A stretch of 6,139 nt of DNA from a virus (Duplodnaviria; Heunggongvirae; Uroviricota; Caudoviricetes), in IMG/VR virus record IMGVR_UViG_2531839449_000026. The stretch is one strand, 5' to 3'. How positions within the stretch are numbered: the stretch's first letter is position 1; every line of letters begins with the position of its first letter. The position numbers were made by a program, and so were the translations under genes. This document shows, in pieces, positions 1-6,139 of the stretch. Under the pieces are notes generated by a model. It saw only the letters and a list, made by a program, of their open reading frames with translations, made no database searches and was not told where the DNA came from.

Positions 1-209
1 TACGCCGCTATACCATGATGATTTATCTCATACCCTTTGAACGTTACCATCTGGCGCGTAATCTCAACTTCGTTCAGGAATCCGCCATCGCATAACTGCC
101 TGGCTATTTTCGATTTGGTCTGGATTATTGGTAGTGCCTGTTCTTTCAAAGCGTATGATATTTGCGCATCCCATGCCTTTTCGAGAATGGCTAATTGTTT
201 TTTATTCAT
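1..209 (-). CDS. Hypothetical protein, partial (first 69 codons; continues past window start). Begins MNKKQLAILEKAWDAQISYALKEQ
   Basis: Own translation of minus strand: ATG at 209..207 shares one base with the helicase TGA (TGATG), no stop before position 1. AAGGAGG lies 6 nt upstream inside the helicase 3' end. Not in ORF track because it has no stop in the window. Function not recognised. Confidence 0.5.
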   Translation of the reverse strand, partial: MNKKQLAILEKAWDAQISYALKEQALPIIQTKSKIARQLCDGGFLNEVEITRQMVTFKGYEINHHGIAA

Positions 210-1645
210 CAGAATCCTCCTTTCTTCTTGGACTGCGGTTCCTCGCGTTCACGTCGGCGCATTTCAGCAGACTGTTGGTCTGTGTCATAAATAGCGCCAT
301 TTGCCTGAATGCAATACACCGTGCCGGTATTGCCATGACGATTGAGACGAAGGATTAGTTCGGTTTCACCATGTGGAACACTGTCATCAAAAGCACCTTC
401 ACGATGGATCCCCACCCAATAATCGCAATCCTGTTCAATCTGCCCTGTATCTCGTGAGTCACTTGGTAATGGGCGTTTATTGGTTCGGCTTTCCAGTGCG
501 CGGTTAAGTTGCGTCAGAAGCACAACAACGCAATCAAGCTCTTTGGCAAGGTTCTTCAGTCCTTTGGTGATCATGCCGTAAGCAAGGTCGTTGCGATCGG
601 CCTTCTCAGCGGTCATTAGTGTCAGGTAATCGACCAGAATCATGCCAACACATCCTTTTTCTCGCTTGATTCGACGGCTTTCGCTGACGATTTGAGCCAG
701 AGATAATCCCGGCGTGTCGTCGATGTAAAGCATGTCGATTTCACTCAAGCGATTGGCTGTTTCGATCGCCCTGTTGAAGTCACCATCGTAATCACCCTGA
801 TAGCCGTCATCGGCGTCATTTGTCGCCGGAAGGTAAAAAATATTCGGGTTAACACCAGACTTCTGCCCTACCAGTTTTTCCAGTATCTGATCACCTGGCA
901 TTTCAAGGCTGAACATCAGAGCGGGCTTTTTCTCATGCACTGCGCAATTGATTGCCATCTGGCTGTATAGCGTCGTTTTCCCCATCTTAGGGCGAGCGCC
1001 AATGACAAACAGAGAGCCTTTCACCAGACCTTTCGGTGACAGCATCCTGTCCAGCGATGGGATCCCTGTGCTCATTCCCCGTTGTTCGCCTGATGGGTCA
1101 AATCGCTTCTCAAGGTCGCTAACCCAGTCTTCCATGACCTCGCCAAATGAGCGAAGGCCGCGACGCGATCCGGTTTTTGCATGGTCTGTCAGTTGCGTGA
1201 AAATCGCCTGAATAGCTTCGTACTTCTGCGTCGCAGTCATTCCGTTGCGGGAATAGAGCAATTCCGTCGCTTCAGTCATGCGGTTGATGGCGTAGCGTTC
1301 CATTGCGGTTTCGCGAACCTGCATTGCATAGGCAACGATGTTTGCGGCGCTCGGCGTGTTCTTTGCGATCTCAGCGATATAAGCAAAACCGCCAACAGAC
1401 GCCGTTAACGATTTACGCTCCAGTTCATCGAAAAGCGTCAGGCCATCTACTGGCTTTTGCTCCCGGTGCATTCTGGTTATTTCTTCGAAAAGGATTTTGT
1501 GTGGTCGGCTGTAAAATGAATCGGGCTTCAGCATCGCCAGAACTTTCTGGACGCGCTCACTGCTGTCATCATCCAGAAGCAATCCACCAATCTCCGCCTG
1601 CTCTGCCTCGATGCTATGGGGCGGCGCATAAAAATTATCGGTCAT
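209..1645 (-). CDS. DnaB-family replicative DNA helicase (phage P22 gp12-type)
   Basis: Translation has Walker A GARPKMGKTT, FSLEMP, YIDD, ILVDYLTLM, LTQLNR and IEQDCD motifs that align with E. coli DnaB (recalled from memory). The ORF track extends to GTG at 1660; I prefer ATG at 1645..1643 (MTDNFYAPP), which has GAGGGTG 7 nt upstream and overlaps the O-like stop by 11 nt. Confidence 0.85.
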   Translation of the reverse strand: MTDNFYAPPHSIEAEQAEIGGLLLDDDSSERVQKVLAMLKPDSFYSRPHKILFEEITRMHREQKPVDGLTLFDELERKSLTASVGGFAYIAEIAKNTPSAANIVAYAMQVRETAMERYAINRMTEATELLYSRNGMTATQKYEAIQAIFTQLTDHAKTGSRRGLRSFGEVMEDWVSDLEKRFDPSGEQRGMSTGIPSLDRMLSPKGLVKGSLFVIGARPKMGKTTLYSQMAINCAVHEKKPALMFSLEMPGDQILEKLVGQKSGVNPNIFYLPATNDADDGYQGDYDGDFNRAIETANRLSEIDMLYIDDTPGLSLAQIVSESRRIKREKGCVGMILVDYLTLMTAEKADRNDLAYGMITKGLKNLAKELDCVVVLLTQLNRALESRTNKRPLPSDSRDTGQIEQDCDYWVGIHREGAFDDSVPHGETELILRLNRHGNTGTVYCIQANGAIYDTDQQSAEMRRREREEPQSKKKGGF

Positions 1646-2534
1646 CGTGTTCACCCTCACGAACTTTCAGGTAGGTATTGTCGTTAAGCAGGAAATCAAA
1701 TCCCTTTTTGTGCCAGACGGTTCCGCGCTGATGGTTTGGGCGCTCTTCGAACATCCATCGGCAATTTTCGCCTACGTAGCTCAAATAATTTCTCCAGTCC
1801 TGCATCGTGAACCCATGCCCGTCAAGCTGGCGGGTTATCACTCCGGCTTTGCGCCAGAACGTTCGGATCTGGTTTTTACGCTTGTCATTCAGTGCGCGGA
1901 TTTTTGGCGCTTCAGGAAGGATTTCGTGGTAAGCATCGACAACATCCTGACAGCTAACGGAAGGTTTTTTCTTGTCAGACTTTTTGTCTGCTGCGGTACT
2001 CTCTAATACGTCAGTATTAGAGATAATATTATTATATTCTTTATCTGTGGTAATTTGCTGGTAATCTGCCGGTACAGTATTGCTTGCAGGCATTGGTATT
2101 GCTGGCTTTGAGGTGGTAATTTGCTGGTAATCTGCTGGTACAAAATTTGACTGATAATCGTCATATTTCTCTACCGAGAAAACTGAGAATTTACCGTGTG
2201 AAACCCAGTCAATCATGCCGAGTTTTTTGAACTTTCTAAGCAGGTACTGAACGCGATCTGGTTTGAGTCCTGTTTCAAACGCCAGAGAGTTTCTACCGCC
2301 AAGTAGCTTCCCTCTGCCTACCAGAATTTCTCCTGCGTCAGTCATTACATACTCAGGCGTATGCTTTGCTTTGAGGATTAAGTGAACCCACAGATGCGCA
2401 GCTTCTGCGTCCTTGTAAAACGGCACATCCATAATTTTACGGTGCAGCAAGGCATACCCCTTACCGCTGCTTTGATGCGGTTGTTGTAGCCTTCTGGCCT
2501 CTCTGGCTTCGGCTAGATTAGATATGTTACTCAT
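1635..2534 (-). CDS. Replication initiation protein, lambda O-like / P22 gp18-like, with origin iterons inside the coding sequence
   Basis: 299-aa ORF immediately upstream of and overlapping the helicase. Its linker region (residues 131-164) is encoded by tandem DNA repeats next to an AT-rich tract, as in the lambda O/ori arrangement. Family assignment rests on synteny (cII - O - helicase) and architecture, not on a search. Confidence 0.75.
2005..2142. other. Putative phage origin of replication: AT-rich tract (about 2005..2046) plus two 30-bp direct repeats (2047..2076, 2113..2142), each made of two 11-bp-phased GGTAATnTGCnGGTA iterons
   Basis: Seen directly: gtggtaatttgctggtaatctgccggtaca at 2047..2076 and gtggtaatttgctggtaatctgctggtaca at 2113..2142 (one mismatch), with a degenerate ggtattgctgg at 2095..2105. 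The flanking stretch agataatattattatattctttatc is AT-rich. In the O-gene transcription direction the iterons precede the AT-rich tract, as in lambda ori. Confidence 0.6.
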
Positions 2535-2673
2535 GACCTTTCTCCTTCTGCATCAGCTTCACTTTTTCCAACTCAGCCCGGAATCGACCAGGCTGCTTGA
2601 AGCTGGACAGGAAGCGATCACGTAGTATGTGTTTGTGAATTTTGTCCTGGTAAGGACTGAGTTGTTTTGTCAT
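2527..2673 (-). CDS. Small hypothetical protein, 48 aa ([48 protein letters not shown]), between cII and the O-like gene
   Basis: Own translation; absent from the ORF track, presumably for length. AGGAG lies 5 nt upstream of the ATG at 2673..2671. The stop at 2529..2527 overlaps the O-like start at 2534, suggesting translational coupling. No family recognised. Confidence 0.45.
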
Positions 2674-2707
2674 AATTACTCCTGTGGATTGATCCAGTCT
2701 TTCTACA

Positions 2708-2986
2708 TCAGGCCTCGAAGAATTCGCCGTTCTTCGGGGCTTTTTCTTTTGTCAGCATTCTGGCTACTTTCTTAGCCAGTTCCGCCAACTCCTCGTCTTC
2801 AACACCCCATTCAAGAACAGCCAGAAGCATTCCCATTTTTGGGATGAAGCTGTCTTTCCATCGCGAAATTTGCGATTCATTAATTCCTAACGCGTCAGCA
2901 ACCTTTCGCTGGCCACGTACAGCAATTCGGTTCAGGATGTTGCTTGTAATTGCATTCGCTTTCTTGCGAGTACTTGTAAGTTGCAT
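2708..2986 (-). CDS. cII: CII-family transcriptional activator
   Basis: 92-aa product aligns with lambda CII as recalled, including the SQISRWK and [10 protein letters not shown] blocks. The 38 bp upstream (2987..3024) match my recollection of the lambda cII translation-initiation region (CATTCAATCAATTGTTATCTAAGGAAATACTTACATATG). Confidence 0.9.
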
Positions 2987-2996: not shown

Positions 2997-3078
2997 TTCC
3001 TTAGATAACAATTGATTGAATGTATGAACCGCCCCGGAAATCCTGGAGACTAAACTCCCTGAGAAAGAGGTAAACAGG

Positions 3079-3405
3079 ATGACTAAAAATACTCGTTTTT
3101 CCCCCGAAGTCCGTCAGCGGGCGATTCGTATGGTTCTGGAAAGTCAGGATGAATATGACTCACAGTGGGCGGCAATTTGTTCCATTGCCCCAAAGATTGG
3201 CTGTACGCCGGAGACTCTGCGTGTCTGGGTTCGCCAGCATGAGCGGGATACCGGGGGCGGTGATGGTGGGCTCACCAGCGCTGAACGTCAGCGTCTGAAA
3301 GAGCTGGAACGTGAAAATCGTGAACTGCGCCGCAGTAACGATATCCTTCGCCAGGCTTCCGCTTATTTTGCGAAGGCGGAGTTCGACCGCCTCTGGAAAA
3401 AATGA
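3079..3405 (+). CDS. IS629-like transposase OrfA (helix-turn-helix / leucine-zipper subunit)
   Basis: 108-aa ORF with GAGG 8 nt upstream of the ATG. Ends in a leucine-zipper-like [29 protein letters not shown] typical of IS3-family OrfA. Overlaps orfB in the -1 frame. Confidence 0.9.
3397..3402 (+). other. Probable -1 programmed ribosomal frameshift site (AAAAAA run at the orfA/orfB overlap)
   Basis: Six A residues sit just before the orfA TGA (3403..3405), with orfB open in the -1 frame from 3402. IS3-family elements make an OrfAB fusion by slippage on A-rich heptamers (established); the exact heptamer here is inferred. Confidence 0.45.
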
Positions 3406-3914
3406 TGCCACTGCTGGATAAGCTGCGTGAGCAGTACGGGGTCGGACCGGTATGCAGCGAACTGCATATTGCCCCGTCAACGTATTACCATTGTCAGCAA
3501 CAGCGACATCATCCGGATAAACGCAGTGCCCGTGCGCAGCACGACGACTGGCTGAAGAGAGAGATACAGCGCGTATACGATGAAAATCATCAGGTGTACG
3601 GTGTGCGTAAAGTCTGGCGTCAGTTGTTACGGGAAGGAATCAGGGTGGCCAGATGTACAGTGGCACGTCTCATGGCGGTTATGGGACTTGCCGGTGTTCT
3701 CCGGGGTAAAAAGGTCCGTACGACCATCAGCCGGAAAGCCGTTGCCGCAGGCGACCGCGTAAACCGTCAGTTCGTGGCAGAACGACCTGACCAGCTGTGG
3801 GTGGCTGATTTTACTTACGTCAGCACATGGCAGGGCTTCGTCTATGTGGCGTTTATCATTGATGTGTTTGCCGGATACATCGTGGGGTGGCGGGTCTCAT
3901 CGTCTATGGAAACG
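3402..3914 (+). pseudogene. IS629-like transposase OrfB, 3'-truncated (only the first Asp of the DDE triad region is retained)
   Basis: Translation contains DQLWVADFTYV and then leaves the transposase sequence after SSSMET; the ORF ends at 3953 in non-IS sequence (PGRCLRQSRMAQ*). The downstream HHSDKGSQY-type and Glu-bearing regions expected in an intact IS3-family OrfB are missing. Confidence 0.8.
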
Positions 3915-3915
3915 C

Positions 3916-4485
3916 CTGGACGATGTTTGCGGCAAAGCAGGATGGCGCAATGAATACCGCGATATTCCCAACAACGGCGGCGTTGAATGCGGAATATCAA
4001 TAAAGATTGATTCCGAATGGGTAACCAAATGGGATGCTGCTGAAAACACGCAGGTAGAAGCCGTCAAAGGTGGTCGTTCAGGTGCAATGAAGCGTGCTGC
4101 CGTTCAGTGGGGAATCGGTCGGTATCTGTATAACCTTGAGGAAGGTTTCGCACAAACATCTCTCGATAAAAAGCAGGGGTGGCACAGGGCAAAACTGAAG
4201 GATGGAACAGGATTTTACTGGCTCCCTCCATCACTTCCGGGATGGGCAATCCCAGCATCAGATAACAAACCATCACCAGAAAATACCAACCAGAAATCTC
4301 CATCGGTTGACTGCGAACAAATCCTGAAAGACTTCAGCGATTATGCAGCGACAGAAACTGACAAGAAAAAACTCATCGAGCGTTATCAGCGTGACTGGCA
4401 ATTAATGGCTGGCAACGAGGAGGCGCAGGCTAAATGCGTTCAGGTGATGAACATCAGAGTTAACGAACTAAAACAGGAGGCATAA
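3916..4485 (+). pseudogene. Rad52-like (Sak-type) single-strand annealing protein gene, 5'-truncated at the IS junction
   Basis: The frame stays open from the junction to TAA at 4483..4485 and encodes ...GAMKRAAVQWGIGRYLYNLEEGF, which resembles the conserved Rad52/Sak motif (from memory). There is no in-frame ATG with an RBS near the junction. ssb starts right after it (TAAATG), as in phage recombination modules. The only available start is ATG 3844, inside IS sequence. Confidence 0.5.
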
Positions 4486-5793: not shown

Positions 5794-6139
5794 TGAACCG
5801 CCCCGGAAATCCTGGAGACTAAACTCCCTGAGAAAGAGGTAAACAGGATGACTAAAAATACTCGTTTTTCCCCCGAAGTCCGTCAGCGGGCGATTCGTAT
5901 GGTTCTGGAAAGTCAGGATGAATATGACTCACAGTGGGCGGCAATTTGTTCCATTGCCCCAAAGATTGGCTGTACGCCGGAGACTCTGCGTGTCTGGGTT
6001 CGCCAGCATGAGCGGGATACCGGGGGCGGTGATGGTGGGCTCACCAGCGCTGAACGTCAGCGTCTGAAAGAGCTGGAACGTGAAAATCGTGAACTGCGCC
6101 GCAGTAACGATATCCTTCGCCAGGCTTCCGCTTATTTTG
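5794..6139 (+). mobile_element. Second IS629/IS1203-like copy, left end (continues past window end), same orientation as the first
   Basis: 346 bp identical to 3025..3370, beginning TGAACCGCCCCGG. Confidence 0.85.
5848..6139 (+). CDS. IS629-like transposase OrfA, partial (3' end beyond window)
   Basis: Same sequence as orfA at 3079; the ATG at 5848 is 54 nt from the IS end, as in copy 1. Confidence 0.85.

Follow-up and report, generated by a model that had tools for sequence, protein, structure and literature searches.

A 48-codon reading frame between cII and an O-like initiator gene as a copy of the lambdoid gene orf48/hkaW (DUF2740)

What is the small reading frame that lies between cII and the replication initiator gene of some lambdoid prophages, and what could its product do there? 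The question is raised by a stretch of 6,139 nucleotides (nt) from a virus of the Caudoviricetes (IMG/VR record IMGVR_UViG_2531839449_000026), which as a whole is called the window in the following, and whose minus strand carries the early-right genes of a lambdoid prophage in the order cII, an open reading frame (ORF) of 48 codons, an O-like initiator gene and the gene of a DnaB-type helicase (Table 1). A preliminary description made from the letters of this DNA had singled out the ORF as unannotated and of a family that it did not recognise, with AGGAG 5 nt before its ATG, a basic product, and a place in a gap of 173 base pairs (bp) where phage lambda has essentially no gene. The structural part of this description stands: the ATG (2673 to 2671) follows AGGAG after the spacer TAATT, the TAA occupies 2529 to 2527, between the end of cII (2708) and the start of the O-like gene (2534) the ORF fills the gap from 2535 to 2707, and the product of 5.8 kDa is basic with an isoelectric point of 10.1 and a net charge of +5.8. 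The claims of novelty, however, do not hold. To judge from sequence identity and profile matches, the ORF is an already known, annotated and named lambdoid gene (orf48 of P22, hkaW of HK620, the gene of gp53 in HK022) and a member of the Pfam family DUF2740 (PF10872), which it matches with 99.4 bits (cut-off 27; E 8.9e-29) over model positions 1-43 of 43. Positions 2400-2800 of the window are 100% identical to the cryptic prophage CP-1639 (AJ304858), in which the ORF is annotated as coding sequence EC_CP1639_21 (CAH23242.1), and the identical protein is found as HkaW in HK620, as gp53 ('Orf48') in HK022, as H0097 in VT2-Sakai and in many Shiga toxin (Stx) phages, while P22 Orf48 is 85% and an Erwinia phage protein annotated as DUF2740 58% identical. 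Taken together with the evidence on selection, gene neighbourhood and translation signals given below, we consider it probable that the window holds the CP-1639 copy of a known early-right gene whose product is a translationally coupled, trans-acting and non-essential accessory of the replication module.

The residues conserved in the family, judged from an alignment of 31 DUF2740 members and a codon table of 18 haplotypes, are present in the window ORF (H13 K14, R18 D19 R20, P28-G-R-F-R-x-E, K39 and the C-terminal GHE), and its length fits the 46-48 amino acids (aa) to which the members keep. DNA matching orf48 occurs in 1026 of 5426 complete Escherichia coli genomes, about a fifth, Stx phages included. 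In the genomes listed, the NCBI annotation pipeline PGAP labels the gene 'DUF2740 family protein', an example being the RefSeq entry WP_000166207.1 in the O111 strain RM9322, where the copy has the same context truncated by an insertion sequence (IS) as in the window. The family is narrow, with 54 clusters at 90% identity and 20 representatives at 50% among 1.84 billion proteins, and its named sources are all genomes or phages of Enterobacterales, bar one contig of 386 bp labelled Xanthomonas pisi (L009; protein P0048). The DUF2740 copy on that contig is identical to the E. coli type and is most likely a contamination of the assembly. A novel family is ruled out by Pfam, PHROG and GenBank annotation, and the 'orf48/gnarl1' of Silas et al. 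is unrelated, its number being a library number and a sequence match being absent from the supplements of that study. Moreover, the layout cII–oop–"orf"–O–P has been described, and the lack of orf48 in lambda noted (Hayes et al., 2012; PMC3349717). The discovery value of the locus is therefore low, as the gene is annotated, its Pfam family is in place and its position is published. What is added here is its membership of the replication module and not of the cII/oop module, explicit evidence for selection at the amino-acid level, and the flagging of an apparently wrong label. This label comes from PHROG 1913, 'tail protein', whose profile matches the window ORF (E 2.7e-28), and it is carried by many phage records, among them NC_002730 (HK620), NC_002371 (P22), NC_019723 and NC_070949. 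DUF2740 lies between cII and a replication initiator gene at every locus examined and not in a tail or structural module, and because this position in the early-right operon is invariable, the label would seem to be an error of annotation, passed on to RefSeq phage records.

Is the open frame a gene at all? For the selection analysis, 18 different DNA haplotypes were compared, the proteins of which range from identical to about 40% identical. The 48-aa frame is open in all 18, so that the loss of the frame in relatives, which the preliminary description had named as grounds for dropping the ORF, was not encountered, whereas stops interrupt every one of the five remaining frames in 12-17 of the 18. 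The ratio of nonsynonymous to synonymous differences per site (pN/pS), a comparison that had likewise been proposed, is 0.42 in the ORF frame and about 1.0-1.2 in four other frames; it is 0.53 in the antisense frame whose third positions coincide with those of the ORF, and this frame has stops in 17 of the 18 haplotypes. After Jukes-Cantor correction the ratio of nonsynonymous to synonymous substitution rates (dN/dS) has a median of 0.28 and a maximum of 0.54. Invariant residues are kept through synonymous switches: five different codons occur at L22, four each at R32 and V38 and three at R30, CGA to AGG included, and I16 is kept likewise, each of these residues being written with 3-5 codons. 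Because the frame is open throughout and the substitutions are frame-specific, orf48 is, by this comparative evidence, a real protein-coding gene under purifying selection at the amino-acid level. It is accordingly extremely unlikely that the open frame is a by-product of the oop promoter, a recombination patch and the translation signals of the initiator gene. Both ends of the ORF do overlap such elements and rare database variants are frameshifted, but the central 30 codons overlap no known element and yet are the best conserved at the protein level, the substitutions follow this one frame, which stays open to 58% identity and below, and each frameshifted variant occurs only once, as compared with hundreds of intact copies. 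A spurious ORF was ruled out by the same frame-specific analysis. The variants in question (P0052, P0056, P0065 and P0070) are partly frameshifted or, in the case of P0056 (152 aa), fused to cII, and are probably sequencing errors or decaying prophage copies.

With which neighbours does the gene travel? Wherever the downstream sequence sufficed, DUF2740 was followed by an O-like gene and a phage helicase gene, either DnaB-type or a Toprim–DnaB primase-helicase, with one exception (L057), and lambda P was found downstream of DUF2740 at none of the loci examined. DUF2740 is absent from 80 of 80 lambda-P loci, and the gap between cII and O measures 32-34 nt there, which agrees with what had been said of lambda. 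In 8 of these 80 loci the cII type of the window is joined straight to lambda O, and at one further locus (L107) a 249-aa gene stands between cII and DUF2740, with the ORF still fused to the O-like gene. By these associations orf48 belongs to the replication module and not to the cII/oop module. In P22, orf48 precedes gp18. The sequences diverge directly past ATGAGTAA, the overlap of orf48 and the O-like gene, and therefore the boundary between the two genes is also a mosaic boundary. One of the primase-helicases, encoded at L075:5108-8011 after an identical orf48 and an O gene of the PF04492 type, measures 968 aa as compared with 626 aa; its extra length, with matches to Hint and LAGLIDADG, suggests an intein in the helicase domain.

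The 5' end of the ORF coincides with elements of the opposite strand which the preliminary description had missed. A predicted homologue of the lambda oop promoter, pO, lies antisense within codons 1-9, with its -35 region under codons 8-9; the lambda pO reads TTGAGT-17-CATAAT for comparison. A strict sigma-70 scan of the window did not call pO, and the assignment is made by homology to lambda and to P22. In the record of the latter, the terminator of oop is annotated together with an 'oop promoter, similar to lambda', into which the 5' end of orf48 extends. The putative oop-like RNA begins at 2684 with GUGGAUUGAUCCAGUC, which matches the lambda oop start GUUGAUAGAUCCAGUA, and ends on the plus strand in a terminator with a 14-bp stem hairpin (2710-2742) and a U tract to 2752. 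Its fold is predicted at -27.2 kcal/mol with a z score of -5.1, and its 3' part is antisense to the end of cII. The homology to lambda thus extends over the 5' end and the -10 region of pO, and the terminator is also of the lambda type. Rfam returned no match for the oop-like RNA, its only hit in the window being the ALIL pseudoknot of the IS element. The whole element sits on a patch of about 32 bp that is nearly invariant across lambda, P22, HK97, the Erwinia phage and the window, and a conserved region of 33 bp has been reported there (Hayes et al., 2012; PMC3349717). Within this patch the initiation motif AGGAGT[AC]ATTATGACAAA is conserved in the alignment of lambda, P22, HK97 and the Erwinia phage, and the Shine-Dalgarno (SD) sequence, ATG and first codons of the ORF (AGGAGTAATTATGACAAA) make up the initiation region from which lambda translates O. 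Where the oop-like RNA starts, CTGTGGATTGATCCAG (CTGT-N8-CCAG; 2682-2697, plus strand) resembles a LexA box with one mismatch, and lambda has CTGTTGATAGATCCAG in the same place; pO is reportedly repressed by LexA. A perfect palindrome, GTCCT-TACC-AGGAC (GTCCTTACCAGGAC), spans 2644-2657 in codons 6-10, directly over the -35 region of pO. It is kept in most DUF2740 haplotypes, with changes that are only wobble-compatible on the sense RNA, and could be a hairpin of the mRNA or a protein-binding site.

These overlaps bring to mind a modulator of the lysis-lysogeny decision, with Orf48 acting as a Rop-like helical hairpin on the pairing of OOP RNA with cII mRNA, or as a factor at pO. The gene adjoins cII, the oop promoter lies inside its 5' end, the product is predicted to be a basic helical hairpin, and the conserved palindrome covers the -35 region of pO. 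Nevertheless we regard such a role as very unlikely, since orf48 segregates with the replication genes and stays with the O-like gene when parted from cII, the same cII/oop type occurs without orf48 beside lambda O, the cII/oop circuit of lambda works without orf48, and fold searches gave no RNA-binding hairpin protein.

At its 3' end the ORF is tied to the initiator gene. The O-like ATG (2534 to 2532) is contained in codons 46-48 plus stop of the ORF, which confirms the claimed overlap of stop and start; it measures 8 nt. The junction reads GGTCATGAGTAA in the great majority of roughly 108 loci examined, and either GGTCATGAGTAA or, in one lineage, a 4-nt ATGA overlap is present in all but one haplotype. 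A G-rich, SD-like motif at the position of the O-like SD is kept in all junction variants. The pair thus has the structure of translationally coupled genes, with a stop/start overlap and the SD of the downstream gene inside the upstream ORF, and because the overlap is conserved, translational coupling of orf48 and the O-like gene, for which the preliminary description had thought the layout suited, is reasonable but unproven. A candidate long-range helix of the mRNA would pair CGUGAUC with GGUCAUG and thereby cover the O-like AUG. According to RNAalifold and pair counts, at least 5 of its 7 pairs are kept in 18 of 18 haplotypes, and pairing is found in 96% of cells as compared with 21-42% when the partners are slid. 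The helix would enclose two small hairpins, one of them with three compensatory pairs, and the R18 codon is CGT in all 18 haplotypes, whereas R30 and R32 use 3-4 codons. We take this helix as suggestive only.

The same junction also allows the ORF to be seen as an adapter or leader, in which the short act of translation from a lambda-type start site to a non-lambda initiator is what matters, by coupling translation or by unmasking the O-like start, and the peptide has little or no function in trans. Several observations fit: the patch fixes SD and ATG alike for lambda O, orf48 and HK97 gp53, which all begin with MT[NK]; in HK97 the slot is taken by a 53-aa ORF of unrelated sequence, which likewise overlaps the O gene; one ORF serves unrelated initiators; and the overlap, the internal SD, the candidate helix and the codon of R18 are conserved. 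However, selection acts on the amino acids (dN/dS 0.28), with R30, R32, L22 and V38 kept through 3-5 codons, the length stays within 46-48 aa, a fold is predicted with confidence, and the O-like gene has a good SD of its own. We therefore hold a pure adapter to be somewhat unlikely, and prefer the coupled accessory gene. In an intact phage orf48 would be translated from the early-right transcript of pR directly ahead of the initiator, and ribosomes finishing orf48 would be delivered to the O-like start or would unmask it, so that the two proteins may be made together, because the SD of the O-like gene lies in the last codons of orf48 and a helix possibly covers its AUG. The peptide itself would then be a dispensable, trans-acting accessory of those replication modules that encode a helicase of their own.

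Which partner could such a peptide have? AlphaFold2 with the family alignment predicts a basic two-helix hairpin whose helices span residues 7-23 and 28-44, with the turn at QPG; the mean predicted local distance difference test score is 80.8. A Foldseek search of the PDB with this predicted fold gave no match and fold searches gave generic helical matches only; a sequence profile search of the PDB gave noise only, and NCBIfam and PADLOC returned no match, so that a defence or anti-defence label was dropped. Orf48 shows no sequence or fold similarity to helicase loaders or small proteins that bind loaders (lambda P, DnaC/DnaI, ORF104 of phage 77). Because Orf48 is paired with unrelated initiators and helicases, the initiator would be a less likely target for it than nucleic acid, a common factor or a factor of the host. 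One version of this is a small effector directed at the host, whose basic hairpin would have its target in a protein of host replication or division, such as DnaB, DnaC or DnaA, in analogy to ORF104 of Staphylococcus phage 77, which reportedly is a 52-aa protein that binds the host helicase loader DnaI. The protein is small, highly charged and early, it is identical regardless of the type of initiator or helicase, and the only helicases in its company are phage-encoded, while lambda P, which depends on the DnaB of the host, never accompanies it. This version is nevertheless unlikely in our view, as there are no PADLOC matches and the correlation comes from few independent events and is not reciprocal. 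Equally doubtful is a trans-acting factor specific to helicase-encoding lambdoid modules that neutralises or recruits host DnaB, DnaC or DnaG, or that helps to load the phage helicase. If true, it would be the smallest known helicase-loading or helicase-hijacking accessory, in fixed coupling with an initiator.

Several observations count against the coupled replication accessory that we prefer. At the level of the module, there are about six independent module types behind the association, as most loci are copies that are nearly identical, and it runs in one direction, since in helicase modules of the HK97 type the place of orf48 is taken by an unrelated 53-aa ORF or by a 90-aa ORF, or is empty. 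DUF2740 is therefore not a general requirement, and the notion that it is required wherever a phage helicase is present is ruled out by these modules. Furthermore, an identical Orf48 precedes unrelated initiators, namely the HK022 type without PF04492, as in the window, and a PF04492 type of 286 aa, and it precedes two helicase architectures; these combinations argue against a contact specific to the initiator or to the helicase. With regard to coupling, one O gene (L111) is called 53 nt past the ORF stop, with no overlap called. In the long-range helix covariation is absent, both arms being invariant across the 18 haplotypes, and by our own estimate the ORF has a chance of about 0.25 of containing, by accident, 7 bp that complement the region of the start codon. 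As to selection, some conserved residues overlap elements of the nucleic acid, with YQDK over the -35 region of pO and KGHE over the SD and AUG of the O-like gene; because the -35 region lies under codons 8-9, the conservation of YQDK may partly be driven by the promoter. Finally, no functional study of DUF2740, PF10872 or hkaW was found in the literature.

Table 1. Features at and around orf48 in the window (positions count from the first letter of the window).
Feature	Position	Strand	Basis
48-aa ORF with TAA (coding sequence of the orf48/hkaW type, DUF2740 family)	2527..2673	minus	ORF list, Pfam, CP-1639 and RefSeq annotation, purifying selection
AGGAG, SD of the 48-aa ORF	2679..2683	minus	sequence; alignment of lambda, P22, HK97 and Erwinia phage
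ATGAGTAA, O-like start overlapping the stop of the 48-aa ORF, 8 nt	2527..2534	minus	sequence; conserved junction
AAGGAG, SD of the O-like gene, in ORF codons 43-45, 7 nt before the O-like ATG	2542..2547	minus	sequence
CGUGAUC (codons 18-20, R-D-R), candidate 5' arm of long-range mRNA helix	2616..2622	minus	RNAalifold, pair counts
GGUCAUG, candidate 3' arm of long-range helix, holds the O-like AUG	2532..2538	minus	RNAalifold, pair counts
Lambdoid homology patch TTTGTCATAATTACTCCTGTGGATTGATCCAG: pO -10, SD and ATG of the ORF (other strand), oop 5' end; mosaic boundary	2666..2697		alignment
Predicted oop promoter pO: -35 TGGTAA 2648-2653, 17-nt spacer with TGn 2668-2670, -10 CATAAT 2671-2676	2648..2676	plus	homology to P22, lambda
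Predicted oop-like antisense RNA, about 67-69 nt, 5' GUGGAUUGAUCCAGUC	2684..2752	plus	terminator scan, fold, lambda/P22 homology
cII-like activator gene, 92 aa	2708..2986	minus	Pfam Phage_CII E 1.8e-42; annotated cII in CP-1639, HK620
O-like replication initiator gene, 299 aa, HK022 type	1635..2534	minus	PHROG 345 'replication initiation O-like' E 4.7e-88; annotated O in CP-1639, HK620, HK022, VT2-Sakai
DnaB-type replicative helicase gene, phage-encoded ('P' of HK022 type)	209..1645	minus	Pfam DnaB 4e-29, DnaB_C 2e-60; annotated P in CP-1639
IS629/IS1203 remnant: inverted repeat ~3025-3049; orfA 3079-3405; truncated orfB 3402-3953	3025-3953
ALIL frameshift pseudoknot of the IS	3360-3476		Rfam

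The context of this copy is that of a damaged prophage. At a distance of 38 nt upstream of cII lies the end of the IS629/IS1203 remnant, which stands in the place of cro, pR, cI and N. The operon of cII, orf48, O and P has thus lost its natural promoter here, consistent with a cryptic prophage of the CP-1639 or E. coli O111 type, and because it is cut off from pR by the remnant, the window copy of orf48 may be silent. Even so, the ORF does not differ from the one found in viable phages. The remnant also runs into a truncated erf/Rad52-like gene, and a second copy of the same IS end is found from near 5850 (5800-6139), with identical short ORFs at 5852-5962 and 5913-6044. In the O-like gene, origin iterons in the form of repeated TGCTGGTA-type motifs were placed at about 2047-2142 by transfer from the HK620 annotation.

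How does the locus compare with known systems? One of these is ORF104 of Staphylococcus phage 77, which belongs to another host clade and differs from orf48 in having no sequence or structural similarity to it; the likeness is a functional analogy only, that of a very small protein in a replication module which brings helicase-related functions of its own. Another is Gp53 of HK97 (53 aa), a basic protein whose gene uses the same initiation region (MTKRRKKYQEKE...), runs into the start of O and has the gene of a DnaB-type helicase after it. Its N-terminus resembles that of Orf48 (MTK..YQ[DE]K, over the -35 region of pO), whereas the remainder is unrelated, without a DUF2740 match and with null tblastn results in both directions, and the overlap measures 14 nt as compared with 8. 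Such HK97-type contents of the slot were seen in L097:2221-2382 (HK97 gp53) and in 49 viral contigs, for example L193, and the slot between cII and O appears to be a hot spot for alternative small genes. The junction of cII, oop and O in lambda shares the patch itself, with the pO -10 region CATAAT, the SD, ATG ACA AA, the oop 5' end and an oop terminator antisense to the end of cII. In lambda, however, it is O that begins with the ATG of this patch, and cII and O are 32 nt apart, while in the window this ATG opens the 48-codon ORF and the initiator gene starts 139 nt further on. The closest relatives are the phages that carry orf48 or hkaW. The window, like CP-1639 and the O111 chromosomes, differs from them in the IS629/IS1203 remnant that removed cro and pR; in the length of the ORF, its position between cII and O, the 8-nt overlap with the initiator gene and the overlap with the oop promoter it is the same, and nothing intrinsic to the gene sets this copy apart.

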